This document shows positions 1,333 to 33,351 of a stretch of DNA of 33,770 nucleotides, piece after piece. Source of the stretch: Deltaproteobacteria bacterium (lineage in GTDB: Bacteria; Desulfobacterota; DSM-4660; Desulfatiglandales; B25-G16). Numbering within the stretch: position 1 is the first letter of the stretch; every line of letters begins with the position of its first letter. The notes beneath the pieces are model-generated. The model did not search any database. It saw only the letters and a list, made by a program, of their open reading frames with translations, and was not told the origin of the DNA. Both the position numbers and the translations under genes were made by a program. The stretch covers positions 643,243 to 677,012 of the forward strand of contig CP070704.1 of NCBI GenBank assembly GCA_020349945.1, in the 5' to 3' direction.

Positions 1333-2682
1333 ATGACTCAAAGTGACTATGACATTCTGCTTGATAACATTAGGAATTTGATCCAAGAAAAGGCCTCTCC
1401 AGATCTGGAAAGTTTGATAACCGAGCCCCACCCAGCAGATCTCGCTGATTTGATAGAACACCTGGATAGCGAGGAGAGGCTTAGTGTGTTTAAGCTTCTT
1501 TCTTCTGAAAGGGCGGGCGAGGTCTTGAAAGAAATGTCATCCCCCATACAGGAGACCCTTACTCATGAACTGGATGACAAGACAGTAGCCGAGATCTTGA
1601 ATGAGCTCAATTCAGACGATGCTACGGATATCCTCACTCATCTCCCAAGAGAGAGGGCTCAGAAGATAATCGGCTTGGTTCAGCCAGAGGTATCCGAAGA
1701 GTTACAGAAGTTACTCGGGTATAAAACCGATACAGCTGGCGGCATTATGGCCCTGGAATTTGTTTCTGTTAATGCCAGTTCCACCATTGGAGAGGCCATA
1801 GAAAACATTAGAAAAAAGAGGGAAGAGGTTGAGAAGCTCTATTATGTCTGGGCCGTGGACGAATTTGGTAAACTGGTGGGGGTTGTCTCCATAAAGGATC
1901 TTGTCCTTGAGCCGGAAGATCGAAGGATTAAGGAAATAATGAACCCTGATGTTATCAGCGTAGATGTCAATGCCGATCAGGAAGAGGTAGCAAGGGTTGC
2001 TAAACAATACGATCTTGCCAACATACCTGTTGTCAATGATCAGCATAAACTCGTAGGGCGAATAACCAATGACGACATTATCGATGTCATTGAAGAGGAG
2101 GCCAGTGAGGATATGTCCCTGATGGCAGGTGTTATGGATCAGCAAATTGGTGAGGGATCCGCATTCAAGATTTCTAAGGCACGCCTCCCGTGGCTCCTTC
2201 TAGGTCTATTTGGGGGGCTTCTGTCGGCCTTAGTAATTAATCATTTTCATGGCTCTATAGAAAAAATACTCGCCCTATCATTCTTTATACCGGTAATAAT
2301 GGCAATGGGTGGAAATACTGGCACTCAAGCAGCTACCGTTGTAATCAGGGGCCTGGCCACAGGCGATATAAGCGTAATTCATACCAGTAAAAGGCTCGTG
2401 GTAGAGTTGTGGGTGGCATTGATAAATGGCATCCTCTGCGGTATCCTTTTAGGGCTTGTGGTGGCCTTCTGGTTATCTGACCCTCAATTAGGCCTCGGTG
2501 TTGGGGTTAGCCTGATCACGGTAATACTCTTTTCCGGCTCCTTCGGGGCATTCATCCCTCTTCTCCTCAGAAAGCTCAATATCGACCCGGCATTAGCTAC
2601 AGGACCATTCATTACCACATCGAACGATATACTCGGACTCTTGATCTATCTCAGTATTGTTACCCATTTCCTCATGGCCTGA
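1333..2682 (+). CDS. mgtE: Magnesium transporter MgtE
   Basis: N-domain (HPADLADLIE), CBS pair (TAGGIM...), and TM region with MGGNTGTQA and IDPALATGPFITTSNDILG. GAAGGA RBS upstream. Confidence 0.95.
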   Translation: MTQSDYDILLDNIRNLIQEKASPDLESLITEPHPADLADLIEHLDSEERLSVFKLLSSERAGEVLKEMSSPIQETLTHELDDKTVAEILNELNSDDATDILTHLPRERAQKIIGLVQPEVSEELQKLLGYKTDTAGGIMALEFVSVNASSTIGEAIENIRKKREEVEKLYYVWAVDEFGKLVGVVSIKDLVLEPEDRRIKEIMNPDVISVDVNADQEEVARVAKQYDLANIPVVNDQHKLVGRITNDDIIDVIEEEASEDMSLMAGVMDQQIGEGSAFKISKARLPWLLLGLFGGLLSALVINHFHGSIEKILALSFFIPVIMAMGGNTGTQAATVVIRGLATGDISVIHTSKRLVVELWVALINGILCGILLGLVVAFWLSDPQLGLGVGVSLITVILFSGSFGAFIPLLLRKLNIDPALATGPFITTSNDILGLLIYLSIVTHFLMA

Positions 2683-3607
2683 GGGCAAAAAAACTCTTAA
2701 CTGACCTTTTAACCCTACCCAAAAACTCCCACTTTGGTCCCACCAACCTTCTCATCTCAGGAAGATGATCCATAGCTGCCGACTCCCCCAGGGAAATCAG
2801 CTCCCTTGATTGGGAAAAATCAGTCCAGTGGGTGCCCTCTAACTGTGGCCTGATAACAATGTCTGCCCTTTCCAGATCGTATCGCTCCAGGTGGAAACCC
2901 TGTATCTCGCCAGCCCTTACGTATATGTCCACAGCTGTTTGAAGGTCTGAGACCAAGGATATGTCCCTATCTACGGCTACAGCAATAACCGCATCAGCTC
3001 CTTCTTCCAAGGCGCAGCTTACAGGCACTACGGAGATAATACCACCGTCGGAAAGTTGTCTGCCGTTAATCTCAACCGGTGGTAAAGCGCCAGGAACCGC
3101 CGAACTGGCTAGTATTGAGCGCCTTAAAGAACCTTCTTTCAGGACAACGAGCTCGCCACGTAATAGATCTGTTGCCACGGCCCTAAAGGGTATTGCGGTT
3201 TCACCGATTTGGATGTCCGGTATGAAGAAGTTGATGAACTCCTCGATATCGTTTATCTGCAAAATGCTGTGTCTATAGAGCGCCTGGGCCAACCTGATCT
3301 TACTTCTAAAATAGGAATGGATCCTTCTACTCAAACTCAGTTCGGCTCCACTTTCTGCATCACCCATGGCCTTAAGCTCAGATGAAGTGTAGAGATTGCT
3401 TTCCAAGAAAGATGCGAGCCTTCCCTCCAGTTCCCCGACCTTCATCCCGCTTGCCAGGGCACCCCCAACAATTGCACCTACGCTTGTGCCCACAATAATA
3501 CCAGGCCTGATCTTTTCTCTTTCCAACACCTTCATGACCCCTATGTGGGCTAATCCTCTTGCCCCACCACCACCCAAGGCCAATCCGATCTTCCCAACCT
3601 TTCTCAT
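2672..3607 (-). CDS. Patatin-like phospholipase (RssA/NTE family)
   Basis: GGGGARGLAHIG oxyanion motif, GTSVG nucleophile motif and DGG motif. Converges on mgtE with an 11-bp overlap. Confidence 0.9.
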   Translation of the reverse strand: MRKVGKIGLALGGGGARGLAHIGVMKVLEREKIRPGIIVGTSVGAIVGGALASGMKVGELEGRLASFLESNLYTSSELKAMGDAESGAELSLSRRIHSYFRSKIRLAQALYRHSILQINDIEEFINFFIPDIQIGETAIPFRAVATDLLRGELVVLKEGSLRRSILASSAVPGALPPVEINGRQLSDGGIISVVPVSCALEEGADAVIAVAVDRDISLVSDLQTAVDIYVRAGEIQGFHLERYDLERADIVIRPQLEGTHWTDFSQSRELISLGESAAMDHLPEMRRLVGPKWEFLGRVKRSVKSFFALRP

Positions 3608-3776: not shown

Positions 3777-4439
3777 TCACTCCTCGATGACGGAGGGTAT
3801 CCACTGGTAAATCGGTGCCAGGTCTTTTTTCACCTGTCCTTTTTGGGGGATCATAAAAATGAAGCCCTTTCTCTGGCCCGGAACGATTGCAATATGGCGG
3901 ACAAGGCCCGGGTCAGGGTTATTATCAATAAACTTCATGAAATGATCGTGCATCTCGGCCCTTTCATAATAGAGGTAGAAATCGTATGCTCCCCACGTTA
4001 TTTCTTCTCTGTCAAAGCGATGGACATTGGTTATTTTCGGCCCCCGAAAGCTAGCATATTTTGCCTCAATCAGATGTGCCTCTGCTGGAGGACGATGTCT
4101 TAGGTACAACGTGATGAACAGTCGATCGTATTTCATGATGAGCTTTGATATGGGCATATAAAGCCATGAATGCCTTGGAAGGAGCGTGATTGTAGCGTCA
4201 ATCTGGGAAATAGGGCCTCTCTTTTTGATGAAGAGATTGGCATGGTATCCGACAACCCCTCCGATATTCGTGAAGGTCTGATCGTCGGGTTTGACCACAT
4301 CTACAAGGTCATTAAATGCGGAGAGAAATACCCTTTTGTTTTGTCTCCTCCCCCAGAAATAACCGATTGTAAGGATACAGGAAAAGGCAATAAAAAGGAA
4401 AAAAACAGGCTGCGTAACAATATGTCCATGTTCAAACAT
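3777..4439 (-). CDS. Membrane-anchored hypothetical protein (220 aa), last gene of the cstA cluster; possible CCDC47/DUF1682-like fold
   Basis: Start moved from 4553 to the ATG at 4439 (MFEHGHIV...), which avoids overlap with the ATPase gene and has purine-rich sequence upstream. One N-terminal TM helix (VFFLFIAFSCILTIGYFWG) precedes a soluble domain. The confidence is for the CDS; the fold call is much less certain. Confidence 0.75.
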   Translation of the reverse strand: MFEHGHIVTQPVFFLFIAFSCILTIGYFWGRRQNKRVFLSAFNDLVDVVKPDDQTFTNIGGVVGYHANLFIKKRGPISQIDATITLLPRHSWLYMPISKLIMKYDRLFITLYLRHRPPAEAHLIEAKYASFRGPKITNVHRFDREEITWGAYDFYLYYERAEMHDHFMKFIDNNPDPGLVRHIAIVPGQRKGFIFMIPQKGQVKKDLAPIYQWIPSVIEE

Positions 4440-4455: not shown

Positions 4456-5376
4456 CTAGAGCCTGGATATGATGTCTTCCGGTATATCGTAGAGCTTTCC
4501 ACCTTTGCCATCAAGGAGCGCCCTTGATAGGGAAACCCGTTCCAAGGGAACATTCTTCATGTTTGTTATATCTCTTTCAACATGCTCAGCCGTCTCTTTA
4601 TTCTCTTCAGTGACCTTATTGTCTATAAGCAGGCGAAGGGGGAACCCTAAATCCTCAAGGCCTTCAATCAACCTCTGAGATTCCTTGAGCGAAAGAATAT
4701 CAGGATTAAAAACCAGGACAACAGAGCAGTTTTCACCCTGTAAGATGGTGTTGAGGGACTGGTAATTCTTTTTCAGTGTTCTGAGTCTTTTCAACACATC
4801 ATCGTCACCTTCATGGTAACTGAGCACAGTTTCCTTCTTGCTTAACTCTCCCCTTATCCTATAGATCGTATAGCGCTTTTCTAAGATCCTTCGCCTGATT
4901 TGGATCAATCGGTCAACCCAGGTCATGGTCACCCTGGGAAGGGCAAGAAACCTGAGGGTCAACCCCGTCGGGGGGGTATCGAAGATGATATAGTCAAATT
5001 TCCCTTCGGTTCTGATGGTTTCCTCAATGCTTGTCAGTAAGGCATACTCTTCGATGCCCGGTGAATATTTCAGCACTGAAAAGTAATTGTCGAGATTTAA
5101 TGTTTGAAGATATCTGTAGGTGCTGGAAAGGACGTTGATTTCCCTTTCTAAATACTGCTCGGATAGCTTGTGAAGATTGATCTCCTTGAGATGAAGGGTA
5201 TCTGTAAATCGACTTTTCCTGTTTCTGAGGGTGACCCCGAATATGTCGCCCAAATTGTGTGCCGGATCAAGGGAAACGATCAGTACACGATATTTTTGAG
5301 ATAGCTGCCATGCTGCAGCAGCTGCCATGGTGGATTTTCCTACCCCACCCTTTCCGGTGAAAAAAAGGATCTTCAT
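4456..5376 (-). CDS. Single-domain ArsA/Get3(TRC40)-family ATPase
   Basis: Deviant Walker A GKGGVGKS, switch I SLDPAHNL, PGIEE and switch II FDTPPTGLTLRFLALP. At 306 aa it has one nucleotide-binding domain. The start abuts the upstream stop (TAA-ATG). Confidence 0.92.
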   Translation of the reverse strand: MKILFFTGKGGVGKSTMAAAAAWQLSQKYRVLIVSLDPAHNLGDIFGVTLRNRKSRFTDTLHLKEINLHKLSEQYLEREINVLSSTYRYLQTLNLDNYFSVLKYSPGIEEYALLTSIEETIRTEGKFDYIIFDTPPTGLTLRFLALPRVTMTWVDRLIQIRRRILEKRYTIYRIRGELSKKETVLSYHEGDDDVLKRLRTLKKNYQSLNTILQGENCSVVLVFNPDILSLKESQRLIEGLEDLGFPLRLLIDNKVTEENKETAEHVERDITNMKNVPLERVSLSRALLDGKGGKLYDIPEDIISRL

Positions 5377-5658
5377 TTACTCAATACCCATTACTCCACA
5401 CATCTCCGCCAGCATATCCCCGGCATCCCGGGCCCTCCGGTTTAAAATCTTCAGTTCCTTTTCCATGAAAGGCAAGAGCTCGACAGCTAAAAAGGTGGGT
5501 GGAGAAGGCAGCCCAACAAAGGATCCCAGAAGCAGAAGTGCGAAGATATTTTCTAGCTCCTCGGTCTCGACAATCGTCAGTGCAACGGCATTTTCACGCT
5601 GCGAGGCATGAAACCCGGAAAAGACACCTCGAAGAAAACTGAGAATCGAAAAACCCAT
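5377..5658 (-). CDS. Small CstA-associated hydrophobic protein (resembles cory-CC-star-type proteins but has no terminal CC)
   Basis: 93 aa, located between cstA and the ArsA-like gene. Core EELENIFALLLLGSFVGLPSPP...ELLP resembles, from memory, small proteins of cstA-arsA loci. Confidence 0.75.
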   Translation of the reverse strand: MGFSILSFLRGVFSGFHASQRENAVALTIVETEELENIFALLLLGSFVGLPSPPTFLAVELLPFMEKELKILNRRARDAGDMLAEMCGVMGIE

Positions 5659-5745: not shown

Positions 5746-7470
5746 TTACGCTGTTTTATATGCCTTGGATTTGAAAAAGTCCCGAATAAACACAATATTC
5801 AAAACCAGCAGTATGACTAGAAAGATCATAGACGCCCATCCCGTAACGGGTTTTGTAGCGATCTCGCCCGGCTGGACAACCACAATGAACCAGACAATAG
5901 CAGCAGTGACCGTAATCCAGAGAATCAAGGCCGGAATGACGGCAGCATTGGCAAATCTGGATCTTAATTTTTTAGCCACAAATCCAGCACCGGTCATGAG
6001 GGCGATAGAGGCAATCAGCTGGTTTGCCGCTCCAAAAGCACCCCAGATGATCAGAAAACTTCCACTCCAGGCCAGCCAGATTCCTATTGCCGCTGGAATC
6101 AGAGATGCGATCCAACGATTGGTTATGAAATTGTAAAACCCTCTGGCGCTTTCTTTCAGAGGCGCGGCCATCTCTGCAACACAGTAACGTCCCAGTCGGT
6201 TGGTCGTATCCAGGCTGGTCATGGCAAAGGCAGCGACCCACATGCCCGCGATGACCTTCACATACTCAGCTGGAATAAACCCTAACCATGTTGCCCCCAC
6301 CATGTCCGTATACGATTGGAGAAATAGGTTTGCCTTGCCCAGCTTAACAGATGCGGAGGCCTTGGTAAACATGGCACCCCAGTTGCCCGCATTCAGTACG
6401 TCCACTCCTACGCCTGCATTCCTCAGGGCCGTGTATCCAAATCCGGCTATGGATACCACAACAACGGTGGACAGGAATCCTTCGAAAAACATCCCCCCAT
6501 AACCAATGAAGAGTCCATGGCTCTCCTTTTCCATCTGTTTTGAGGTTGTTCCCGAGGCAACGAGAGAGTGGAACCCGGAAAGCGAGCCGCAGGCGATGAT
6601 CAGAGGAATTGCTGGCCAGAAGGGCGTGGGCTTGCCGCCGACGAGGATGGGCGAAAAGCTTGAAAATGCAGGCACCTCAAATCCCCTGAACGCAAAAAGG
6701 GCGCCAAAAAGGCCCAAGAGTAGACCAGCAAACAAAAGCCAGGAATTCAGATAGTCCCTCGGCTGCAATAAGACATTGACGGGAATGGCGGCAGCAATGA
6801 TGATATAGAAAAAGAACACAATCATCCAGGTGTCAAAATCCGCTTTTATAGGAAGCGCGACGCCTGCCCAGATGGAGGCCATCAGCATAGCGATGCCGAT
6901 TATGGTAGCCAGCAAATAATTCATCTTGACTCGGTAGAGCAAGACACCCAGGATGAGAGCGGCCACAATAGCCCAGAGGTAGGCGGAGGCAATGGCGGGA
7001 GTTCTGACAAACATTCCGCCGACAATGGAGCTGAAGGCGGCCACCACAAAAACGATGGCGAGTAAAACGATCCAGTAGAATGCTGTTCCTGTTCTCTTCC
7101 CTATGAGATCAGTGGCGACAAACTGAATCGACTTGCCGTCGTAGCGGACAGATGCCATCAGGGCCAGATAGTCGTGAACGGCTCCGATGAAGGCATTACC
7201 TAACCAGACCCAGAGTAGGCCAGGAACCCAACCCCAGCACATCGCTACTGCAGGGCCAATAATAGGGGCAGCACCGGCAATCGAGGCAAAGTGATGTCCA
7301 AAAAGAACCCCCCGCCTTGCTGAGATATAATCTACCCCATCATAGAGGCGCTTGGCTGGTGTTTCTATAGAGTCCGAAGCCTTCACGACATCTCTCTCTA
7401 CCTTTTTTCCGTAGGTGAAATACAGAACTAGGTAAATCAAAAGACCGATACTGATAACAACTGATGACAT
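5746..7470 (-). CDS. cstA: Carbon starvation protein A family transporter (peptide/pyruvate)
   Basis: Motifs TPA...DGVDY, LFGHHFASIAGAAPIIGP, GAVHDY, LLQPRDYLN, IACGSLSGFHSLVASGTTSKQ and TSLDTTNRLGR. Many TM helices; strong AAGGAGG RBS. Confidence 0.96.
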   Translation of the reverse strand: MSSVVISIGLLIYLVLYFTYGKKVERDVVKASDSIETPAKRLYDGVDYISARRGVLFGHHFASIAGAAPIIGPAVAMCWGWVPGLLWVWLGNAFIGAVHDYLALMASVRYDGKSIQFVATDLIGKRTGTAFYWIVLLAIVFVVAAFSSIVGGMFVRTPAIASAYLWAIVAALILGVLLYRVKMNYLLATIIGIAMLMASIWAGVALPIKADFDTWMIVFFFYIIIAAAIPVNVLLQPRDYLNSWLLFAGLLLGLFGALFAFRGFEVPAFSSFSPILVGGKPTPFWPAIPLIIACGSLSGFHSLVASGTTSKQMEKESHGLFIGYGGMFFEGFLSTVVVVSIAGFGYTALRNAGVGVDVLNAGNWGAMFTKASASVKLGKANLFLQSYTDMVGATWLGFIPAEYVKVIAGMWVAAFAMTSLDTTNRLGRYCVAEMAAPLKESARGFYNFITNRWIASLIPAAIGIWLAWSGSFLIIWGAFGAANQLIASIALMTGAGFVAKKLRSRFANAAVIPALILWITVTAAIVWFIVVVQPGEIATKPVTGWASMIFLVILLVLNIVFIRDFFKSKAYKTA

Positions 7471-9034: not shown

Positions 9035-9886
9035 CTATGAATCCTTATGCCTGATAAAATCCTTTATGTTTATAACCTTTGGTGTATCCTTCTTTCGTAG
9101 CTCTCCACTTCTGATCTTTTTGATCTTCTCCGTATATTCCCTCAATTCTGTATTAGTCTCCAAAATCTCCCCAATTTCACGCTCAAATTCCTTTAGGCAA
9201 CCCTCAAGTTCAAGGGTCTCAATAGAGAAGGCAAACAAAGAGGCAATGAGATTAATAATCCTGATTACCACCCTAAAATTCGTACCCGTAAGGTACAGTG
9301 GCGAGTGGCCCCAAAGCCCAACAACTGGGCAGCTTTCTTTTTCTGCCTTTTGCATAATAAGGGAATGGACCCCGGAGGGGCCTTCATATTCAGTCAGATG
9401 AATGTCCTTTTTGATAAAAATATCTCTCCACTCCTTGAAAGAATAAACTCCAGAGACGACGGCCTCCGTGTGAAGGACATCATCATGCACCCCCCCAACA
9501 CTGATGATAAGAGACACACCCCATTGTTTACATAACTGAAACAGGACCTGAACAAAGGCGGACCATCTATAGTCTGGCTCTTGCGCCTTTAAGAGGATAA
9601 AATCATTGTTCCCCTCCTTGTTAGACCAAAAATAAAAACGTATCTTTTTAAGACATATATCTTGGAGCCTTCCTTCCTTGATAGTGACAACTGGTCTGTT
9701 TTGAGTAAACTGGTAAAAACGGTCTTGATCTATTTCGGCCATTAATGTAGCCCCTTTTTTCTGAATAATGTACTCGATTGACTTTAGGGCGATATTACCG
9801 GCATTTGCCCAGCCCTCAAATCCAGCAATCAGTATTGGGCTACGGAATGGAGGCCTTTGATAAAGTCTAATAAAATCTTCAGCCAT
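9035..9886 (-). CDS. PAC2 (proteasome assembly chaperone) family protein
   Basis: Motifs LIAGFEGWANAG, FYQFTQNRP, EPDYRW, YEGPSG and LWGHSPLYL are typical of bacterial PAC2-like proteins. Confidence 0.82.
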   Translation of the reverse strand: MAEDFIRLYQRPPFRSPILIAGFEGWANAGNIALKSIEYIIQKKGATLMAEIDQDRFYQFTQNRPVVTIKEGRLQDICLKKIRFYFWSNKEGNNDFILLKAQEPDYRWSAFVQVLFQLCKQWGVSLIISVGGVHDDVLHTEAVVSGVYSFKEWRDIFIKKDIHLTEYEGPSGVHSLIMQKAEKESCPVVGLWGHSPLYLTGTNFRVVIRIINLIASLFAFSIETLELEGCLKEFEREIGEILETNTELREYTEKIKKIRSGELRKKDTPKVINIKDFIRHKDS

Positions 9887-19484: not shown

Positions 19485-20135
19485 TCATATGCCTTGCTTT
19501 CTTGCCTCAAGGGAGGCCTTGATCTTCTTTAATCGCAAAAAGCTCTCCCTCTCTATCTCCTCCATCCTCATCTCTATATGTTTAATCGTTGCGTTGAGCC
19601 TGGGGATAACAATGTATTCCAGGGCATTAACCCTTCTTTTTGTCTTTTCCGCTTCTAGGGCAATCCTCCTGACAGACTCCTCCACCTCCGCTAGCCTCAC
19701 AATCAGCAAAAGGGACTCCTCAAAGTTTTTCGCGGCATCATCAAGTTTTGCTGTCGTACCCAAAAAGCCGTATCCCCTTTCATTGATCTTCCTGACCACA
19801 TCCTGGATTTTCATAATAGGCAGTGAGACGCCCATTATGTTTTTAGTGGTAAACTCCAGGCCTATATCTCTTAGCGTTACGCCGCTTATCTGTTCTAAAT
19901 CCCGAGATCCCAACAAAACTTCGGCCATTAAAAGGTTGTGAAAGGCAATACCTAAATTTTCCTCTACCCTCATTCGTGCATCCTTATATTCCTTAATCAC
20001 CACCATGAACTCGGAGATCAATGCATCCCTCTTCTCCTTTAAAAGTTTGTGCCCTTTGTCAGCGAGCTTCGCCCTTTTTTTGAGCCTTAATAATTCCATC
20101 CTTGTCGGCTTGATGTTTTGTAGGATCTCTGCCAC
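19485..20135 (-). CDS. ntpD: A/V-type ATP synthase subunit D
   Basis: Motifs KPTRMELL, KGHKLLKEKRDAL, NIMGV and KTKRRVNALEYIVIP; GTG start abuts the subunit B stop. Confidence 0.96.
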   Translation of the reverse strand: MAEILQNIKPTRMELLRLKKRAKLADKGHKLLKEKRDALISEFMVVIKEYKDARMRVEENLGIAFHNLLMAEVLLGSRDLEQISGVTLRDIGLEFTTKNIMGVSLPIMKIQDVVRKINERGYGFLGTTAKLDDAAKNFEESLLLIVRLAEVEESVRRIALEAEKTKRRVNALEYIVIPRLNATIKHIEMRMEEIERESFLRLKKIKASLEARKQGI

Positions 20136-21557
20136 TTACTGTTCTCCTGCCTTGACTTGAGATCCCTTCTTGTAATATTGCTTAATATATTTCTCATCTA
20201 TCCTTTTTAGCTCTCCCGCTGGGAGCATTGAGAGAAGTTCCCACCCCAAATCGAGTGTTTGTTCAATAGTCCTATTTTCATCAGCTCCCTGATTGACAAA
20301 CCTCTCTTCAAAAATATCTGCAAACCTTAAATTGAGGCGATCCCTTTCGCTTAACGCCTCCTCTCCCACAACTGCAACGAGGCTTCTGACATCCCTTCCT
20401 TCAGCATAAGCGGAATAGCATTGGTCAGACACACCCAAATGATCTGCCCTTGTTCTCCCCTCGCCTATGCCTTCATTCATAAGCCTCGACAGACTGGGCA
20501 GAACGTCTACGGGAGGGTAAACTCCCTTTCTGTGCAACTCACGAGAGAGTACAAATTGCCCCTCAGTTATATATCCTGTAAGGTCAGGTACAGGATGTGT
20601 TATATCATCATCTGGCATAGAGAGAATCGGCATCTGAGTGATGGAGCCTTTTTTTCCTCTGATCCTTCCTGCCCTCTCATAATTGCTTGCTAAATCAGTA
20701 TACATATATCCCGGATATCCTCTTCTCCCAGGAACTTCTTCCCTTGCCGATGAAATTTCCCTCAGGGCCTCACAGTAATTCGTCATATCTGTGAGTATAA
20801 CCAATACATGGGTGTTGTAATCAAAGGCGAGAAACTCCGCGGCTGTAAGGGCCATCCTTGGAGTAATAATCCTCTCAATGGCTGGATCATCCGCCAAATT
20901 GATAAAGGAAACGATCCTTTCTAGAGCGCCAGTTGATTCAAAGCTATTCATGAAAAAGTTGGCCTCTTCATGGGTTATCCCCATACCGGCAAAAATTACA
21001 CTAAAAGGCTCCTCTGAACCCAAAACTTTAGCCTGTCTTGCTATCTGGGCAGCAAGTTCATTGTGAGGTAATCCAGAGCCCGAAAAAATTGGAAGCTTTT
21101 GCCCCCTCACTAATGTATTCATTCCATCAATGGTGGATACACCAGTTTGGATAAATTCATTCGGATAGGCCCGTGCTGTCGGATTTATAGCCGCACCTGT
21201 GATTGGCAATCGAGCCTCCGGAATGATCTCAGGACCACCATCAATCGGTCTACCCAAACCATCAAAGGATCTTCCAAGGATCTCCTTGGAAAGTGAGATC
21301 CTCATGATGTCCCCTGAAAATCTGACTCTTGTCTGTTCTGTATCAAGTCCTCTTGTGCCCTCAAAAACTTGGACGACGGCCACATTCTCCTGTGACTCCA
21401 AAACCTGACCCATTCTGTTGCCACCTTCAGGTGTGCGGATATAAACGAGCTCTGCATATGCCACCTCCTCCACGCCTTCGACAATCATCAGAGGCCCTGC
21501 AACCTGCGTAACCGACCTGTACTCCCTTGCTTTTATATCCTTGGCCTTCTCCTTCAT
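20136..21557 (-). CDS. ntpB: A/V-type ATP synthase subunit B
   Basis: Motifs [35 protein letters not shown] and [15 protein letters not shown]. Confidence 0.97.
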
Positions 21558-23323
21558 CTTTGATTCCTCAAAGATTCAAACTCACCCGCGATAGACTTGA
21601 TTACCTTCTCATATCTCCGTGGAAAATCTGGGTTTGGTATATACTTCATTCGAGCTATCTCATCCTTGATCTTCATTGCTGTTATCCTGCTCGCCACTAT
21701 GCCTGACTCAATTGCCCCTTTGACCTCTTGATAAAACCTCATAATCACCTTGAGCATTAGATATTGCTTCTCTTTAGAGCAATAGGAATCTATTTCGTGA
21801 TAGGCATGTTGCTGAAGATAATCTTCTCTAATCATCCTTGCCACCTCCAAAAGGGCCCTATCTGATTCCGGCAATGCGTCCTGACCAACCAACTGGACAA
21901 TCTCTTGTAGCTCGGCCTCTTTCTCCAGAACAGCCATCATTTCTCCCCTTAGGGTTTGAAATTCCCTGTCTATGTTCTTATCATACCAGGGTTTCACAAA
22001 ATCCAGATAGAGTGAATAACTCGTCAACCAGTTGATGGCAGGAAAATGCCTCCGGTCTGCTAGGTTTGTGTCTAATGCCCAGAATGCACTAACCACCCTC
22101 AAGGTATTTTGCGCAACCGGTTCAGAGAAATCACCTCCAGGAGGAGATACCGCTCCAATAATCGAAACTGATCCAAATCTCTTTTCTCCCCCCAAGGTCA
22201 CTACCCTTCCTGCCCTTTCATAGAAGTCAGCGAGCCTGGTGCCCAAATAGGCCGGAAACCCCTCCTCGCCTGGCATCTCCTCCAGCCTTCCTGAAATCTC
22301 TCTCAATGCCTCAGCCCACCGTGACGTTGAGTCAGCCATCAAGGCTACATTATATCCCATGTCCCTGTAGTACTCGGCAATGGTAACCCCTGTGTAGATA
22401 GAGGCCTCCCTTGCTGCCACTGGCATGTTGGAGGTGTTGGCAATCAACGTGGATCTCTCCATCAGCTTTTCCCCGGTGTTTGGATCGTCCAACTCTGGAA
22501 AGGTCAGCAAGACCTCTGTCATTTCGTTTCCTCTTTCTCCACAGCCAACGTAGACGACAACCTGTGAATCGGCCCACTTTGCCAACTGATGTTGGCTAAC
22601 AGTTTTACCAGTTCCAAAGCCTCCAGGAATAGCGGCTGTGCCGCCTTTGGCTATAGGGAAAAAAGTATCATAAATCCTCTGACCAGTTAGTAGTGGCACC
22701 TCTGGGTCGAGCTTTTCTTTAAAGTGCCTTCCTACCCTTACCGGCCACTTTTGTTTCATTGTTATTGCTTGTCTCTCTCCTCTATCATCAAGGATAGCCA
22801 TAGGCTCATCAACCGTAAAACTTCCACTTTTAATCTCTATTACCCTTCCATGTATGCCTGGCGGGACCATTATCTTATGCGATATCACCTTTGATTCCTG
22901 AACCTCTCCTATAATATCTCCCTCTACAAGCCTATCACCTCTTTTGACTGTTGGTGTGAAGTCCCACTTTTTTTCAGGATCCAGGCCGGGAACATTAACC
23001 CCCCTGGTTATATAATCCCCAACCTGGTTCTTGATGCCAAGCAAGGGCCGCTGTATTCCATCATAGAAGTTGGTAATAATTCCCGGACCAAGTTCCACTG
23101 ATAGGGGAGCACCTGTTCTTGCGACCTCTTCCCCTGGTTTAAGGCCAGTAGTATCCTCGTAAACCTGGATATAGGCCAAATCCTCTATGAGCTTTATTGT
23201 TTCTCCCATCAGGCCTTCCTGGCCCACCCTGACAACCTCGTACATCTCGCAACCTCTCATGTCTTTAGCGATTACCAGTGGACCAGCAATACTCTTGATC
23301 TTTCCTATCTTATGATCTGCCAT
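21554..23323 (-). CDS. ntpA: A/V-type ATP synthase catalytic subunit A (589 aa)
   Basis: Start reassigned to ATG 23323 ([15 protein letters not shown]), which has an AAGGAAG RBS and removes the overlap with subunit F. P-loop [29 protein letters not shown] and [10 protein letters not shown]; non-homologous region present. Confidence 0.97.
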
Positions 23324-23333
23324 TTCTTCCTTG

Positions 23334-23657
23334 CTATGCCGTCTCGAATCCGACAGTCCTTTTAATAAGCTTCCGCATGGAGTCGATCTTTTTGACCATG
23401 GGACCACTGCTATCCGGGATCTCCACAACTATAGGCATTATGCCCTTCCTAAATCTACTCACCTCTTCTAATATACTCCTTATCTGCTCAGCTACCTTTT
23501 CGGTAACCAATATTATGCCGATACCCTCGTCAAATAGGCCCTTCAGTATCCCTCTGACATCTTCCTGCCTGATATCCTCCATCAGCAAGGTTCTCCTTAT
23601 ACCTGCGAGCCTAAAGCCATAGACTGTATGCCTGTCTCCGATTAAGGCGATTTCCAT
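23334..23657 (-). CDS. ntpF: A/V-type ATP synthase subunit F
   Basis: Motifs [32 protein letters not shown] and IKRTVG. Confidence 0.93.
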
Positions 23658-24697
23658 CAGTTCCTAATGAGTGATTCTCTGATTTCATCCCTATTCAGAG
23701 CAACCTCGGTGCTCCTAACAATGGCCAAAAGATTCCCTACCTCTTTCTCCTTTGACACAAGAAACCCAATAAGAGGCCCTAGGCCGAACGGCTTCTTTTT
23801 CCTAATGTCTTCTGCCTTTCTAACCACCATATTATCGAGGGCCTGTTCAAAGGATAAAATAGAACTGGTTCTTTCATGCTCAGCCAGAGCACGTAAAAGA
23901 GGTTCAAGATATATGGTATCTTCCAGAAGGGATATGAGGCCGGGCAGATCCTCTTCGTCAAAAGCGGGAAGCAGTTCATTCAACAATGTGCACTCATGGA
24001 TCAAAAAGGGCTCGATATCCTCTAAGGGGAGGCCGTTATCTTTTGCCCTCAGAATAATCTTAAGGTTATGCGTTTCAACACTTGTCCCTATAAAATCTCC
24101 GAATTCCTTCATGCCCTTTAGGTTCAAGACCTTTATCCATAGATCTTCCCAGAGAATCTTATCCAACGCAGCCTCTAAAAAAAATAGGTTTTTAGCCACA
24201 TGATATCTTGCCACACCATCCTTTAAAGACTGGTAAGGGGTTTTTGCCAAGAGGCCAACAAAGCTATCCATGCCCTCTGCATCAGTGAGGGCCCTAAAAA
24301 ACATAAAGTCTAACTCACCTCCCTCAACAAAGGAATCTAGTATTTCTTCTTTCCTTAAACCTCCCTGTATCCCCCTCATAACCGTTCTCAAATTGATAAC
24401 ATCCCACTTTCTCAAGAGGTATTCCTTTATCAACCATGCCCCTTTAGGAATAATCTTGGAGATCTCCCTCCCTAACGAGGAGAATTCCTTTAGAATGGCA
24501 TTCTCTAATTCCCTGGCCTCACTAATTGCCCTTTCTGATAAATAAGGGAAATAATCTGTTCCCTCTAAAAGTGAGGCTATCTCTCCAGGAGATTTACATC
24601 CCCATAGATCCTCCCACCTCGCTGGAGAAATAAACTTGCCCTCTTTTGCCATTACTTTTGCATTAACATACAGATATGAAAGAGCATCTCGAATCAT
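23657..24697 (-). CDS. ntpC: A/V-type ATP synthase subunit C (d)
   Basis: Motifs YVNAKV, LEGTDY, WDVINLRTVMR, NLKIILRAK and KEKEVGNL; 346 aa, between E and F. Confidence 0.9.
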   Translation of the reverse strand: MIRDALSYLYVNAKVMAKEGKFISPARWEDLWGCKSPGEIASLLEGTDYFPYLSERAISEARELENAILKEFSSLGREISKIIPKGAWLIKEYLLRKWDVINLRTVMRGIQGGLRKEEILDSFVEGGELDFMFFRALTDAEGMDSFVGLLAKTPYQSLKDGVARYHVAKNLFFLEAALDKILWEDLWIKVLNLKGMKEFGDFIGTSVETHNLKIILRAKDNGLPLEDIEPFLIHECTLLNELLPAFDEEDLPGLISLLEDTIYLEPLLRALAEHERTSSILSFEQALDNMVVRKAEDIRKKKPFGLGPLIGFLVSKEKEVGNLLAIVRSTEVALNRDEIRESLIRN

Positions 24698-25344
24698 AGC
24701 CTATCGCCAAAGAGGATCTTAGCCACATCTACCCTTATGCTCTCTTTCAGCCGGTTCAATTTAGCCTCAAGGGTGTTGTCAACCTCCACCTGCTTCTCCA
24801 AATCCCTCACAACTACGCCTCCGAGGCACTTTATGGTCTTATCAGTTCTGGTCAAAGAGATGTCTCTCCCTGTCCTTTTCTTGACAAATGTAGTTAATTC
24901 TCCCAACATACGCTTGTTGAAGGTTCTGCTGTCCCTCTGGTTAAAGGCCAACTCCAGTTTGCTTCCGGCAACAACCTCAGAGGCAGAACCAATCAGGTTA
25001 AACATTATATTCTTATATACAAAACTATCCCGCTTCCCCTTCTCGGCTAACTCTCCTAAGGCCTTTTTGGCCCCCTCAAATGAAGCAGCAATTGCTTCTT
25101 CCTGGGCATCCATCCTCTTTCTTCGAACATCAAGTTTGGTTTCGGCAATGATTCTTTCTCCCTCAAGCGATGCGGCTCTCCTGCCATTTGAGAGAATTCT
25201 CTCAGTCTGCCTCTCTGCTTTCTCCTGAGCAGCCTTCCTGATCTTACCGGCCTCTTCTTGGGCCTTAAGAAGTATCTCAGATATCTCCTTCTCGGCCTCG
25301 GCCTCTATATGGGATATTATTTTATCAACACCTTCATCTGACAT
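24694..25344 (-). CDS. ntpE: A/V-type ATP synthase subunit E
   Basis: N-terminal helical stalk (DKIISHIEAEAEKE) and C-terminal LGGVVV...VDNTLEAKL...AKILF. Confidence 0.92.
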   Translation of the reverse strand: MSDEGVDKIISHIEAEAEKEISEILLKAQEEAGKIRKAAQEKAERQTERILSNGRRAASLEGERIIAETKLDVRRKRMDAQEEAIAASFEGAKKALGELAEKGKRDSFVYKNIMFNLIGSASEVVAGSKLELAFNQRDSRTFNKRMLGELTTFVKKRTGRDISLTRTDKTIKCLGGVVVRDLEKQVEVDNTLEAKLNRLKESIRVDVAKILFGDRL

Positions 25345-25391
25345 AATTGCCCTCTATTAAACAGAAAAGCACCCCGGCATACGTATTCTAT

Positions 25392-25877
25392 TTATCCGCC
25401 CATAATCTTGGATCCTACAAAGATCAGGATAGCTATCAGGAGACCAAAAATAGCAAAGGTCTCTGCCATGACAGCAAGGACAACTGCCTGACCAAAGGTT
25501 TCTGGCCTTTTCGCTACAGCACCCATGCCACTGGCAGATATAGCGCCCTGGGCTATTGCCGTAAAACTACTTAAACCGACAACGATCCCTCCTCCAAGGG
25601 CGGCGTAACCCATCCCAATAGGGATCTCCTTGATCTCTCCGCCAAGTACACCCACCCCTATAAGAATCAAAACAGCACCCAGGAAACCATAAATTCCCTG
25701 TGTTTGCGGTAAGGCCTGGAGAACTAATACAGGCCCAAACTTTCTCGGATCCTCTGATATAACACCGGCCCCTGCAACACCAGCCAAACCAACTCCGATG
25801 CCGGAGGCAATGGCAGCCAAACCCATAGAAACTGCTGCCCCCATAATTGCTAAAATTACTCCCATCGATAATTCCAT
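25392..25877 (-). CDS. ntpK: A/V-type ATP synthase subunit K (c), duplicated 4-TM proteolipid, Na+-type
   Basis: Two hairpins: LQALPQTQGIYGFL (no Glu) and MAETFAIFGLL (Glu139). Gln110 present. Strong GAGGGAGG RBS. Confidence 0.95.
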   Translation of the reverse strand: MELSMGVILAIMGAAVSMGLAAIASGIGVGLAGVAGAGVISEDPRKFGPVLVLQALPQTQGIYGFLGAVLILIGVGVLGGEIKEIPIGMGYAALGGGIVVGLSSFTAIAQGAISASGMGAVAKRPETFGQAVVLAVMAETFAIFGLLIAILIFVGSKIMGG

Positions 25878-25896
25878 AACAATACCTCCCTCTTAT

Positions 25897-26066
25897 TACT
25901 ACAACGGCATTCCTTAAATGCTGTGCTGGGGATGTCTTCACAAGGCGATCCACCCATGGCGGGCCATATTCCTCGTGGTTACGAGGAAGGAAGAGAAAAT
26001 TGGTCGAATCACCTCAAAGTGGCTTACTTAGTGAGCTGTCATAAAGATAAAAATCCCGCTGTAGTA
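25897..26066 (-). other. Candidate structured RNA filling the subunit I - subunit K spacer
   Basis: 11-bp closing stem 26056-26066 / 25897-25907 (one G-U in mRNA sense) and an internal perfect 8-bp hairpin at 25969-25988. Confidence 0.5.
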
Positions 26067-28013
26067 TTATTTAATCTCTACAATTCCAACCTTCATCTCA
26101 AGGGGTGTGAACTGTGTTCCCCCACTTTCATAAAATTTTGTAAAAAACTCTACATAATGCAATCTAAGTCCATGAACAAAGCTGCTCATGGCGTTAATGA
26201 CAAAATTGAACAGGTGCCCGATAAAAAAGACAATAACCGCGAGGATTACCCCTATTGAACCAACCATGTAAAGCATGCCGGAGAGTACATTAACTGTCAT
26301 TGCTATTCCTGTTGTACACAACCCCAAGGCCATTAGCCTGGCATAGGAGAGGATATCCCCCATAAATCCAGTTACTTTAAACATGGCCATGGCCTTATGT
26401 CCCATTAAAAGTAATATGAGGGACGCCACTATAAATATTAGGCCTACTGACTTGTAGCCGACTAAAAATAAAAAAAGGCCCGGCTGGACAAATAGGAACC
26501 AGAGGTTTTCACTAACGGCCTTCCATCTCTGTCGCCTTTTAAGATTATCCAAAACATTAATCACTACACCGGTGTTTACATGGAGGAGACCAATAATTAA
26601 GGCAATTAACAAAAAGGCAGTAACATGAACCATAGGATCAAATACCTGCATACCTGCCAATACCGATAACTTGCGCCCAAAGCCACCAAACCATCCCCCA
26701 GAAAGTGCGCCTATAATAATTGTAGTAACTCCTGCTGATGAAAGGATGATTCCTCCATCCCTTATTGTCTGATTATATCTTCCTCCCCCGCGTATTATTG
26801 ATAGACCCAAAAAAAGGGCTATTACCCCATACAGTGCATCGGTTAACATGATTGAAAAAAACAGGAGGAAACCCGGAACTAAAAATAGGGTTGGATCTAC
26901 GCCATTATAGGCCGGCAACCCATAAAGGCGCGTTAACAGCTCAAAACTCCTGACGAACCGAGGGTTTTTTAGCTGTACTGGCACATTATCCCTCTCCTCT
27001 GGATCCGACAGCTCAACCACACATGCCTCCCGGCAGACCTCTCTTATCTCCTGAGCAGCTCTTGCAGCTGAGTGTCTCGGAACCCAACCCTCAATAGCCA
27101 CAACATGTTGCATCTTTGCAAGCTTATTCTGGCTTTCTTCTCTCTGTTTCTCAATCATTAACAATTCCTGGTACTTTTGAACCTCATCCCGCCATCTCTT
27201 AGCTATATCAACCAGGGTCGCCTCTGTTCTTATCTTCTCCTCGTTTAATGCCATCAATCTTTTAGTAATGGAATCTATTGCCTCTTTTGGTTTTCCTTGC
27301 TGGCCCTCTATTTCAACCCTTTCCCAATTCATTCGGCGAAGATTAGCTAATACCAGCGAGGCTTGTTCTTTAAGGCAGATTACTATTGTTACTAACTTGT
27401 TCCCAGATGCATCCCTTGCCTCGAGGTAGAAGCTATCATCAGTCAAATCCCTTAAGCTCTCCGTTATATTTTCTATCTGCTCCTTTGGTACAATACCTAA
27501 AAATACAGATAAAAAATCTGAATCTCCAATATCTGCTAGATCTATCTCTAAGGGTGAAATCAGGTCCAATAATCCGCTAACCCTCTCTAATTCTAAAGTC
27601 TCTTCTTCAATCTTCTCTATCTCGCTAACAGGTCCTTCTACCTCTTCTTTGATCTTTTCTATAATCTCGTCAACGCTATCGGCAAGCTCCCTACCGTAGA
27701 TCTCTCTGGTTTCAAGCTTTTTCGGCGGCAGCGGGGCAAAAATTCCCTTTATAAAACCCTCCTTTGGTTCAGGTTCATAGCGCTCAAAAAGATCTAGAAA
27801 GCGATTTACCGTGATATTTTGTGCAGCTATGTTTCTGATATTTGGTGAGAAAGGGTGAGGTCTTAGCAGGTTGTTCCAATGAGGGTCAGCGAGTTTTTCA
27901 GAATAATCATTAAGATGGATAGTACCGAGCTCCTGCAGCCTTTTAATTGTTTCATATCTATAGCCCTCTAATACGAGTATTTCTATCCTCTTCATCCGGG
28001 CTGGTCTTAGCAT
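26067..28013 (-). CDS. ntpI: A/V-type ATP synthase subunit I (a)
   Basis: MLRPARMK N-terminus, IEGWVP, YGLPAYNGVDPT, essential Arg in DILSYARLMALGL, and HGLRLHYVEFF. Confidence 0.96.
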   Translation of the reverse strand: MLRPARMKRIEILVLEGYRYETIKRLQELGTIHLNDYSEKLADPHWNNLLRPHPFSPNIRNIAAQNITVNRFLDLFERYEPEPKEGFIKGIFAPLPPKKLETREIYGRELADSVDEIIEKIKEEVEGPVSEIEKIEEETLELERVSGLLDLISPLEIDLADIGDSDFLSVFLGIVPKEQIENITESLRDLTDDSFYLEARDASGNKLVTIVICLKEQASLVLANLRRMNWERVEIEGQQGKPKEAIDSITKRLMALNEEKIRTEATLVDIAKRWRDEVQKYQELLMIEKQREESQNKLAKMQHVVAIEGWVPRHSAARAAQEIREVCREACVVELSDPEERDNVPVQLKNPRFVRSFELLTRLYGLPAYNGVDPTLFLVPGFLLFFSIMLTDALYGVIALFLGLSIIRGGGRYNQTIRDGGIILSSAGVTTIIIGALSGGWFGGFGRKLSVLAGMQVFDPMVHVTAFLLIALIIGLLHVNTGVVINVLDNLKRRQRWKAVSENLWFLFVQPGLFLFLVGYKSVGLIFIVASLILLLMGHKAMAMFKVTGFMGDILSYARLMALGLCTTGIAMTVNVLSGMLYMVGSIGVILAVIVFFIGHLFNFVINAMSSFVHGLRLHYVEFFTKFYESGGTQFTPLEMKVGIVEIK

Positions 28014-28894: not shown

Positions 28895-30001
28895 TCATTC
28901 CTGAAACATAAACCTCCTCATACTTATATTCATTATCAAGCCCATAGCAGCCATAGTGGAAATTACAGACGATCCGCCATAGCTAAACAGAACCAATGGT
29001 ATTCCGACTACTGGGAGTAAACCGGTTACCATGCTGACATTTATAGCTACGTGCCAGAAAATCGATGCAGCAATACCTACGACAATAAGGGCGCCGAACT
29101 TATCTTTGCTATTTTTGGCTATATTGAGGCACCATAGTATTAAGAATAAGTACAGCAACAAGAGCAGTGCAGAACCTACAAAGCCCCACTCCTCTGCCAA
29201 AACAGAAAACGAAAAATCGGTATGTTGTTGTGGAAGAAAATTTAACCTTGTCTGGGTCCCTTTAAGAAAGCCTTTCCCCCAAAGAAGGCCTGAACCAATA
29301 GTGATCTTCGACTGGGTAACATGATAGGCGGCACCTAAGGGATCCAGATCAGGCCTTAAAAATGCTATTATGCGTCTCTTCTGGTATTCCTCGAGGATGA
29401 TCCAAAAAAAGGGCGCTGAAAGAAGTGCCGTGAATAAAAATATCAGCATTGACTTCCAGTTTACATTAACAAAGATAATAATTGAGAAGGAAACTATGAG
29501 TAACATCAGAGCCGTTCCCAGGTCAGGCTGATGGACTATGATAACGAAAGGGACGGCAATCAAGGTTAACGGTCTCAATAAATCCCTAACTCGGTAATTT
29601 CCCATCCTTTCTAGTTCAGAAAAATATTTAGCGAGAACAACAACAAGAGATATCTTCACCATCTCAGAAGGTTGGACAGAAAAATAACCAAAACTCAACC
29701 AGCGCTGAGAGCCATGTGTAACCTTGCCCATCTTGAGGGAAGCGAACAGAAAGATCACGGTGATAAAAAACAATGGATAAGCAAGCCGACCTAGAATATG
29801 GTAGTCAAAAGTTGTCATCAAAAGAAGAATCAAGAAACCTATTCCAAACCAACAGATTTGTCTAACGTAAATCTGGCTCTGCCCCATAGATCTAATCGTG
29901 TAGGTAGCACTGTAAAGATTAAAGATGCTCAGCAACCCTATCAATATCAATATAGCTAAAAGTATCCAGTCAAAGTTATTGATCAATCGACGATCGAACA
30001 T
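28895..30001 (-). CDS. rodA: Rod shape-determining SEDS protein RodA
   Basis: Motifs GSQRW, QPSE, QPDLGTA, FLPQQHTDF and GIPLVLFSYGGSS; follows mrdA. Confidence 0.96.
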   Translation of the reverse strand: MFDRRLINNFDWILLAILILIGLLSIFNLYSATYTIRSMGQSQIYVRQICWFGIGFLILLLMTTFDYHILGRLAYPLFFITVIFLFASLKMGKVTHGSQRWLSFGYFSVQPSEMVKISLVVVLAKYFSELERMGNYRVRDLLRPLTLIAVPFVIIVHQPDLGTALMLLIVSFSIIIFVNVNWKSMLIFLFTALLSAPFFWIILEEYQKRRIIAFLRPDLDPLGAAYHVTQSKITIGSGLLWGKGFLKGTQTRLNFLPQQHTDFSFSVLAEEWGFVGSALLLLLYLFLILWCLNIAKNSKDKFGALIVVGIAASIFWHVAINVSMVTGLLPVVGIPLVLFSYGGSSVISTMAAMGLIMNISMRRFMFQE

Positions 30002-31934: not shown

Positions 31935-32474
31935 TTAGGCATAATCTCGATTCTCTTTTCCTCTTACCAGATCTAGGAAATAGAACAAAAATGGGGCAAT
32001 CATGCCTGTTATGAGAGCAGAAATACATACCGAAATAAAGCTTATCGAAGGGATGCGTTGCCCTAAAGGGAAAATGCTCATGATAATAAGGAGAAGGGAC
32101 CACTTAGCCACAACAAAAAAGGCCACCAATAACATTGAGGTCCTGATTTTGGTGAAATCCAAAAACTGGCGACAGTAATTAACTCCAAGAAGGATAGCAG
32201 AATAGGTAAAAGCAAACAAACCAAGCTGACATGGAGCGAATATGTCTGTCAGCACCCCCATAAAAAAAGCCAGACAACCGGCCCTAAAGTTTTGATCCTG
32301 GCCGATGAGATATATGAGGAAGATAGGAATTAGATCGATATCAACCCATTCAATCCCTATAAGATGGGTTATGCCCCCCCTTAAAATTACAACGATCCCG
32401 CATGTTAGCCAGATTAAGGCATGGAAAAATACATTTTTCTGTTTCCCTAGCCCTAAATTAACCCTAATACCCAC
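31935..32474 (-). CDS. mreD: Rod shape-determining protein MreD
   Basis: Highly hydrophobic, about 180 aa, with IDL and FFMGVLTD..GLFA motifs; between mreC and mrdA. Start uncertain. Confidence 0.85.
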   Translation of the reverse strand: MGIRVNLGLGKQKNVFFHALIWLTCGIVVILRGGITHLIGIEWVDIDLIPIFLIYLIGQDQNFRAGCLAFFMGVLTDIFAPCQLGLFAFTYSAILLGVNYCRQFLDFTKIRTSMLLVAFFVVAKWSLLLIIMSIFPLGQRIPSISFISVCISALITGMIAPFLFYFLDLVRGKENRDYA

Positions 32475-32505: not shown

Positions 32506-33351
32506 TTATGGCATCTCAGGCTCTCTTAAAGGCACAAAACCTGATCTCAAAATTATGAGAACCTCCTCTAACTTAGAGAACTCCACAGCGGGGATTACCC
32601 TAACATCCTTGAATAGCTTATTGGGCGAATCAGTAATCTTTCTAACCTTACCCAGATAAAGACCCTTGGGGAATACCCTTCCCAACCCTGAGGTTACAAT
32701 AGTGTCGCCTGCTTTTATCTCACCTGTTTTTATCACATAATCCAAATAACATTCGTTTGATCCGCTTCCTTTTAGCATCCCTCTCCCCCTTGACCTCTGA
32801 ACCAACCCGTCAACAGCACTGTTTTGATCTGTAATCAATAATGCCTGGGCGTAATTAGGGGAGACAGAAACTATCCTTCCGACAACTCCCTCTGAATTAA
32901 CAACCGGCATGTTTATCGTAAGACCATCGTTTTCCCCTTTATCTATCATGATAGATTTAAACAACCCGCTTGAATCCCACCCGATCACCCTTGCCGCCAA
33001 AAGAGGCTCATTCGTATTCTCTTGAAAGTTTAGGAGGTTCCGCAGGCGCTGATTAGCCAACAAGAGCTCTTGATACTTACTATTTTCGAGCTTGAGGAGG
33101 TTTATCTCTTTTTTGAGGAGTAAATTCTCTTGGCGTGTTTCAACCAAGGAAAAATAGTCTCTCCATATACCCCTAACTACGGAGATTGTCCCCACAAAAA
33201 ATCTTTGAAATGGGGCGGTCATCTCGACAGCGATCTTTTCTGCCGGATTCCAATCTTGCCCCCTGCCACTGCTAAGAGACAGCAAGATTAGGGATAAGAT
33301 AACGAAGATATAAAAAACCCATTTCGGCCTATGCTCTGGAAAAATGGTCAA
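32506..33351 (-). CDS. mreC: Rod shape-determining protein MreC
   Basis: TM helix, coiled coil (ENLLLKKE, NQRLRNLL), IDKG, GVVGRI and TSGLGRVFPKGL. Confidence 0.95.
   Translation of the reverse strand: MTIFPEHRPKWVFYIFVILSLILLSLSSGRGQDWNPAEKIAVEMTAPFQRFFVGTISVVRGIWRDYFSLVETRQENLLLKKEINLLKLENSKYQELLLANQRLRNLLNFQENTNEPLLAARVIGWDSSGLFKSIMIDKGENDGLTINMPVVNSEGVVGRIVSVSPNYAQALLITDQNSAVDGLVQRSRGRGMLKGSGSNECYLDYVIKTGEIKAGDTIVTSGLGRVFPKGLYLGKVRKITDSPNKLFKDVRVIPAVEFSKLEEVLIILRSGFVPLREPEMP

Follow-up and report, generated by a model that had tools for sequence, protein, structure and literature searches.

CCDC47 (calumin), a component of the PAT complex that also belongs to the multipass and SND3 translocons, combines a large globular cytosolic domain with a C-terminal coiled coil in the account of McGilvray et al. 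(PMC7505659), and the paper accompanying entry 9I78 describes ctCCDC47 with a single transmembrane (TM) domain and a well-resolved cytosolic domain (PMC12572126); as described in these two papers, the coiled-coil/latch region binds the ribosome and Sec61. Trehalose monomycolate transport factor A (TtfA), described among mycolate producers, is anchored by a TM helix at its N-terminus, places a domain in the cytoplasm and interacts with the multipass transporter MmpL3, with roughly its first 205 residues reported to suffice for function (PMC6593404). A transporter module was described in 2010 by Castillo & Saier, who reported clusters of cstA, cstX (~90 amino acids, aa) and a single-domain arsA homologue (~300 aa), with a further gene, cstY (~210 aa, one TM segment), in five archaea only; their description assigns CstY no fold or family, and proposes CstX and CstY as auxiliary subunits and the ATPase as the energizer of CstA (PMC2963123). 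Here we examine a 33,770-nucleotide stretch of DNA from a Deltaproteobacteria bacterium (assembly GCA_020349945.1, contig CP070704.1, positions 643,243–677,012; hereafter the window), in which a gene that we call cstY (3777–4439, minus strand; 220 aa plus stop) encodes a protein with an N-terminal anchor and a predicted CCDC47/TtfA-like cytoplasmic alpha/beta domain. We propose that CstY is very likely related, by remote homology, to the TM-plus-globular core of CCDC47 and that it is probably a dedicated subunit of the CstA module.

CstY has a single strongly hydrophobic segment, upstream of YFWGRRQNKRVFLSAF (residues 27–42; window 4314–4361), with a best 19-residue Kyte–Doolittle window of 2.22 at residues 7–25. 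The TM helix at about residues 10–29 (4353–4412, minus strand) falls within one continuous helix that AlphaFold2 (AF2) predicts for residues 5–49. The preliminary description of this DNA had noted one TM helix ending in YFWGRRQNKRVFLSAF, with ATITLLPRHSWLYMPISKLIMKYDRLFITLYL further on; both strings were located in the translation, the second at residues 82–113 (window 4101–4196), and one hydrophobic segment lies ahead of the first. Only about nine residues precede the TM helix, and a basic run, GRRQNKR (residues 30–36), comes directly after the hydrophobic segment, which by the positive-inside rule argues for a cytoplasmic location of the domain. In the predicted topology, a short N-terminus lies outside, the protein crosses the membrane once by its TM helix, and an alpha/beta domain of ~190 residues faces the cytoplasm. 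Across 109 diverse family members, conservation is concentrated in the N-terminal half of the protein. It includes a juxtamembrane motif, Y-x-x-G-R-R-x-N (residues 27–34; 4338–4361, minus strand), in which 96% of these relatives retain G30 and 94% retain N34, and peaks by column conservation in a core at residues 51–122 (4074–4289, minus strand) that overlaps the Pfam CCDC47 match discussed below. Conserved blocks read P51-x-D-x-x-Y-T-x-I-G-G-x-x-G64 and L-P88-R89-x-S-x-L-Y-x-P96; D105 is invariant, and E120-x-H122 and H182 are further conserved positions.

We take 3777–4439 as the right gene bounds because three observations agree. First, an alternative frame reaching to 4553, which would encode 258 aa, would overlap the 3′ end of the arsA-like gene at 4456–5376. 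Second, the cstY ATG at 4439 lies 16 nt past the arsA-like stop codon and has a purine-rich stretch ahead of it. Finally, the start methionine is equivalent in 27 of 28 aligned relatives. The frame is a real gene and not a chance open reading frame (ORF).

One link between CstY and CCDC47 comes from predicted structure. An AF2 model built from 28 sequences, with a predicted local distance difference test (pLDDT) score of 86.6 and a predicted TM-score (pTM) of 0.81, consists of the long N-terminal helix followed by a mixed alpha/beta domain. The top three Foldseek matches to this model are translocon chains that we take to be CCDC47, and TtfA ranks fourth. Chain 7tm3_4 (Foldseek E 2.8e-8) superposes by VIA-align with Z 16.7 and a root mean square deviation (rmsd) of 3.4 over 209 aligned residues (model 9–220, chain 135–396), followed by 9i78_4 (E 7.5e-8; Z 15.3, rmsd 3.0, 204 aligned), 6w6l_7 (E 9e-4; Z 11.4, rmsd 4.0, 186 aligned) and the TtfA entry 6t84 (E 5.7e-3; Z 10.4, rmsd 4.0, 151 aligned; model 34–220, chain 27–201). 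After these, the best VIA-align Z is 5.9. A Foldseek-independent scan of 48,161 representative chains gave Z of at least 8 for only 7tut_4 (16.7), 9i78_4 (15.3) and 6t84_A (10.4), the next value being 6.3. The structures of CCDC47 and TtfA came out in 2019–2022, later than the AF2 weights that we used.

Sequence comparison leads to the same family by a separate route. The sole Pfam match of CstY is PF07946 (CCDC47, formerly DUF1682), with E 0.0016 over residues 15–115 and profile positions 7–123 of 326, and CstY scores 13.8 bits against this model in a six-frame search of the genome. PF07946 also matches all 28 close relatives at sub-threshold level (best E 5.6e-6) and 46 of the 109 diverse relatives (best E 6.2e-5), the runner-up family reaching only 5 of the 109. 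In the ESM Atlas, a eukaryotic CCDC47 cluster appears only at rank 22 with a score of 0.80, which we treat as a lead and no more. Sub-threshold PF07946 matches also occur in the control genomes of Bacillus subtilis and Corynebacterium glutamicum, both of which hold CstA.

Several observations weigh against the homology. The PF07946 score of CstY is 18.1 bits against a gathering cut-off of 27.7, and is thus below threshold. Searches of PDB sequences with CstY, with family profiles and with one relative recovered no CCDC47 or TtfA, and gave chance-level hits only (E ~1). Identity of CstY to the matched translocon chains is 9–11%, and to TtfA 5%. The naming of those chains is itself indirect: the structure hits carry entry titles and not molecule names, and we infer that 7tm3_4, 7tut_4, 9i78_4 and 6w6l_7 are CCDC47 because their residue numbering and lengths fit, as do the descriptions in the corresponding papers. 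These facts could be explained if the CstY domain had arisen by separate ancestry, merely resembled CCDC47 and TtfA and had an unrelated role, particularly as the weaker fold matches, at Z 4–6, include two-layer alpha/beta domains that recur in unrelated families. We regard such convergence as highly improbable. The Pfam signal and the fold match, obtained independently, give the same family, which is our reason for calling CstY homologous to the CCDC47 core; the stretch matched by Pfam is precisely the half of the protein with the strongest conservation, TM-proximal motif included; the structural alignment takes in 209 of 220 residues, TM helix included; about four Z units separate these matches from the next fold; and the age of the AF2 weights also speaks against chance resemblance. 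The choice of homology over convergence is thus an interpretation, which we hold with high but incomplete confidence.

If CstY is homologous to CCDC47, its model suggests which parts are shared and which are not. As in CCDC47, a single TM helix would lead directly into a juxtamembrane stretch that is conserved and then into a cytosolic alpha/beta domain, and the predicted fold superposes over 186–209 residues (Z 11.4–16.7). The resemblance to CCDC47/DUF1682 proposed in the preliminary description therefore stands at the level of fold and remote homology, as does its remark that CCDC47's long C-terminal coiled coil is absent. The last residue of CstY, 220, pairs in the alignment with residue 396 of a chain with 342 modelled residues, so the protein lacks the C-terminal coiled coil and latch helices, its last element in the AF2 model being a 16-residue helix. 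A signal peptide and an acidic luminal N-terminal domain are also features of CCDC47, the account in PMC7505659 covering them in part; CstY has neither, because only those few residues precede its TM helix. The obligate small multi-TM partner of CCDC47 in the PAT complex, Asterix, has no detected counterpart among the operon neighbours of CstY. Moreover, CstY is prokaryotic, and its gene shares a transporter operon with an ATPase gene. By its model, CstY is the bare TM-plus-globular core of CCDC47. The likeness to TtfA extends to an N-terminal TM anchor, a cytoplasmic domain of the predicted CstY fold and a presumed pairing with a single multipass transporter, but TtfA has a disordered C-terminal tail, shows no sequence-level match to CstY, and has MmpL3 as its partner with no ATPase partner described, whereas the context of CstY is CstA.

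Sundaram et al. (2022) state that prokaryotes lack PAT components (PMC9630114), and a 2024 review describes the PAT complex as conserved across eukaryotes (PMC7616256). A full-text literature search, covering main texts, found no published work that connects CCDC47 with homologues in bacteria or archaea, with Asgard archaea or with TtfA. The module itself was already published in 2010, and CstY here is a tail-less, transporter-module variant. The literature searched contained no bench test of the CstA module as proposed then.

What CstY does is best approached through its genetic context. The gene closes a tight minus-strand operon with the order cstA-cstX-arsA-cstY. The first gene, cstA (5746–7470, minus strand; 574 aa), encodes a CstA-family multipass transporter (PF02554, E 5e-121) that is the only CstA in the genome, as judged by a single PF02554 match. 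It is followed by cstX (5377–5658, minus strand), encoding a conserved small protein of 93 aa, and by arsA (4456–5376, minus strand), encoding a single-domain P-loop ATPase of the ArsA/Get3 family (306 aa; PF02374, E 1e-55; TIGR00345, E 1.2e-50). A scan for promoters and terminators found one promoter-like site upstream of cstA and otherwise nothing decisive. The present gene agrees with the CstY of Castillo & Saier in length, in its single TM segment and in clustering with cstA, cstX and a single-domain arsA, and from this architecture and context the two would be the same family, to which relatives in archaeal surroundings, described below, lend indirect support; a difference is that CstY was archaeal only in the 2010 account, and the present copy is bacterial. 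A patatin-like phospholipase gene at 2672–3607 (minus strand), 169 nt downstream of cstY, was considered as a module member and rejected as probably outside the module, since of 80 loci just the two nearest have it there.

The linkage of cstY to arsA, which the preliminary description proposed to test, is close to universal. We compared 80 close loci, in which CstY is 58–84% identical to the window's protein, and 40 distant metagenome loci, in which it is 24–39% identical, counting as informative those with at least 1 kb upstream (76 of the close set) and 32 of the distant set. A gene for the ATPase lies directly upstream of cstY in 106 of these 108 informative loci (75 of 76 close and 31 of 32 distant), with a median gap of 11 nt in the close and 3 nt in the distant set and overlapping stop and start codons in 21 loci. 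The close exception is a second copy (L040) in a metagenome-assembled genome (MAG) that also has the full module. In the distant exception, cstA is followed directly by cstY, with cstX and arsA absent (L093:77–2748, metagenome), and another genome of the window's phylum has the same cstA-cstY pair lacking cstX and arsA (L127, 2668–5093). One distant locus, L092, was missed by tblastn and has an ArsA-type C-terminal ORF upstream of cstY; a gene for an archaeal Hjc resolvase adjoins it (PF01870, E 6.3e-30). On one metagenome contig (L113/L114), two cstA-cstX-arsA-cstY copies lie ~7.5 kb apart, which looks like a tandem duplication of the module.

The two-gene loci suggest that CstY can work without the ATPase, and they raise the possibility that CstY, like TtfA, binds and supports only its transporter, the neighbouring arsA reflecting operon packing and no contact with the ATPase. 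Along with the two independent cstA-cstY pairs, this explanation draws on the report by Castillo & Saier that Hyperthermus butylicus has CstY without ArsA and that the CstY and CstA trees are almost identical (PMC2963123), and on the reported binding of MmpL3 by TtfA with no ATPase involved (PMC6593404). Nevertheless, the regular placement of arsA immediately upstream of cstY, often with stop/start overlap, is hard to reconcile with packing alone. In addition, a 323-aa database protein (P0268) joins a C-terminal part of ArsA (PF02374 positions 180–285, E 5.9e-12) in frame to a complete CstY; either a genuine fusion or the loss of a stop codon could account for it, and it is the only such case that we saw. 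Evolutionary distances add little: mirror-tree correlations across 39 loci are all 0.88–0.96, a range in which shared history dominates, and within the close clade CstY distances track those of ArsA (r 0.66) more than those of CstA (r 0.47), a weak test confounded by shared history that again leans away from a purely transporter-directed role. On balance we consider a CstY that serves CstA with no ATPase contact quite improbable.

Overall, we lean towards a reading in which CstY is a dedicated CstA accessory subunit that acts as a cytoplasmic docking platform and, in the four-gene form, tethers the ATPase and CstX. Its parts carry different weight: dedication to the CstA module is probable, as stated above, and tethering of the ATPase is a tentative idea to which we give somewhat less than an even chance. 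In the proposed mechanism, CstY would adjoin the multipass transporter CstA in the membrane. The conserved surface formed by its juxtamembrane region and N-terminal half would serve as a cytoplasmic platform and, where the ATPase is present, would retain at CstA both the soluble Get3/ArsA-like ATPase and CstX, the hairpin protein. By binding or hydrolysing ATP, the ATPase could in this way govern how CstA is assembled, how stable it is or how active. Contact of CstY with CstA or with the ATPase, as well as the role of the ATPase cycle, are presumed parts of this scheme. By analogy, TtfA binds MmpL3, CCDC47 acts beside multipass clients and CstY accompanies one multipass transporter, which together suggest such an arrangement. 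A further working analogy is the Get3 receptor Get1/Get2 (WRB/CAML), in which a membrane-anchored cytosolic element adjoins an ATPase of the Get3/ArsA family; the differences are that we saw no fold or sequence likeness of Get1/Get2 to CstY, that CstY has one TM helix and lacks an Oxa1-type insertase core, and that a tail-anchored client is not evident.

Two sets of observations run counter to the docking-platform reading. First, the TM helix of CstY is variable, with a mean column entropy of 2.65 bits over residues 10–29 among the 109 relatives, which fits a plain anchor better than a specific helix–helix contact with CstA. Second, two loci (L125 and L126) hold cstA-cstX-arsA with no cstY, so the ATPase does not need CstY. 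A third, a feature of the ATPase itself, is taken up below. In a sample of 401 genomes drawn evenly from the phylum, CstY was found in 14 and CstX in 67, and 13 of the 14 genomes with CstY also have CstX, which speaks for the module; no CstY was found in the same-family or same-order genomes searched. CstY is therefore an optional, patchily distributed add-on, and its sole constant companion is CstA.

The ATPase is a secure member of its family, scoring 189.6 bits against a cut-off of 24.3 for PF02374 and 172.8 against 135 bits for TIGR00345. Its translation contains a deviant Walker A motif, GKGGVGKST, together with DPAHN and DTPPTG, and has one cysteine and no CxxC motif. The nearest solved chains are the algal ArsA1 5zme (4.5e-35), the archaeal, Get3-like 3ug6 (4.5e-30) and ArsA 1f48 (1e-27), then eukaryotic Get3. 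The helical region is charged and not hydrophobic as read from the translation, with no sign of a Get3-type client groove, which is the remaining point that counts against the scheme proposed here. A second, more canonical ArsA-family gene lies elsewhere in the genome. A role of the operon in arsenic handling was rejected, ars genes being absent nearby, and Castillo & Saier make a similar remark in their discussion of the clusters (PMC2963123).

CstX is predicted to form a helical hairpin, with helices at residues 3–48 and 55–89 and a hydrophobic GLPSPP tip, in an AF2 model of modest confidence (pLDDT 71.8, pTM 0.36). Its best Kyte–Doolittle window is 1.62, and it carries a strongly conserved stretch, E-x-R-E-L-E-N-I-F-A-L-L-L-L-G-S-F-V-G-L-P-S-P-P. 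The NCBIfam model NF041419 ('cory-CC-star') matches it at E 3.5e-5, below its cut-off; CstX has no Pfam match at E ≤ 1 and no Foldseek match at E ≤ 0.001. With neither a Pfam family nor a Foldseek match, likeness of CstX to Asterix, to YbdD or to the Get1 coiled coil is unsupported. In Escherichia coli, YbdD, a small protein encoded beside cstA, is reported to be needed for CstA-dependent pyruvate uptake (PMC5847655), and CstA can therefore depend on a small partner; no evidence that CstX and YbdD are related was found.

These properties of the neighbours bear on a more ambitious explanation, in which insertion, folding or assembly of the large CstA transporter would be the joint task of CstY, the Get3-like ATPase and CstX, with CstY as an intramembrane or juxtamembrane chaperone in the manner of CCDC47 and the operon as a miniature, client-specific analogue of the PAT and GET systems. 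Several facts would fit: CstY shares its predicted fold with CCDC47, which works on multipass proteins in the published accounts (PMC7505659, PMC9630114); the operon ATPase belongs to the Get3/ArsA family; one large multipass protein, the genome's sole CstA, is always in the module; and type III secretion chaperones are found among the weaker fold matches at Z 4–6. We nevertheless judge this explanation unlikely, because CstY lacks the latch/coiled-coil region that puts CCDC47 at the ribosome and Sec61, CstX is unlike Asterix, most CstA genes do without CstY, as the 401-genome counts indicate, and the ATPase shows no sign of a hydrophobic client groove. We find no support for a general PAT/GET machine of prokaryotes. 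The suggestion in the preliminary description that this locus would be a prokaryotic counterpart of the membrane-biogenesis machinery of the endoplasmic reticulum consequently gives way to a CstA-transporter module, in which CstY follows cstA even where the ATPase is missing, the small neighbour shows no Asterix-like character by Pfam or Foldseek, and the ribosome- and Sec61-contacting parts of CCDC47 are absent.

CstY belongs to a small and rather rare family, as judged by sequence searches. A word-indexed search found 511 proteins matching CstY at E ≤ 1e-3; among the matches listed, most are from MAGs of Thermodesulfobacteriota or "Deltaproteobacteria", are ~220 aa long and bear no functional name. 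Three relatives in this search carry precomputed PF07946 hits. An exhaustive search of 1.84 billion representatives with the CstY profile gave 241 clusters (at 50% identity) at E ≤ 1e-3, whose lengths, among the matches listed (150 of 241), are mostly ~200–240 aa with a remainder of mainly shorter fragments. A profile from 58 distant members recovered only 11 proteins. The nearest Atlas clusters are labelled Thermodesulfobacteriota, Chloroflexota, Methanobacteriota and Thermoproteota, labels that rest on few members. Among 8000 scored candidates, we found no longer, fused or eukaryote-length relatives, which is weak evidence, and no NCBIfam model covers the family.

The remainder of the window is ordinary bacterial chromosome, with purA (a label read from the translation, and so provisional), a PAC2-family gene, cell-envelope genes, RNase Y, a V/A-type ATPase operon and RodA/PBP2/MreC. 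The PAC2-family protein (9035–9886, minus strand; PF09754, E 1.4e-38) belongs to a family named for a eukaryotic proteasome assembly chaperone. The V/A-type ATPase operon (19485–28013, minus strand) encodes subunits I, c, E, C, A, B and D as identified by Pfam, in a host assigned to Thermodesulfobacteriota. Between PBP2 (29983–31887) and MreC (32506–33351) lies a 179-aa ORF (31935–32474, minus strand) that has no Pfam match at E ≤ 1e-5 and occupies the usual place of MreD.

A speculative and, in our estimation, unlikely extension of these findings is that CstY, TtfA and CCDC47 all belong to a single ancient superfamily, whose members span the membrane once and act as escorts by docking onto multipass membrane proteins from the cytoplasm. 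On that view, an archaeal protein resembling CstY would have acquired a tail for ribosome binding and given rise to eukaryotic CCDC47, and the module would be a surviving prokaryotic, client-specific assembly system of escort and Get3-like ATPase. Even apart from this scenario, with a compact relative of its core in bacteria and archaea, CCDC47 would gain a prokaryotic history and a link to TtfA, which serves a lipid transporter as accessory factor. We rate the practical value as moderate, the function being a matter of interpretation. CstY would nonetheless be a small, tractable model for the conserved globular domain in a form that lacks the ribosome-binding tail, and its predicted fold would provide an initial structural foothold for studying the CstA module's fourth gene.

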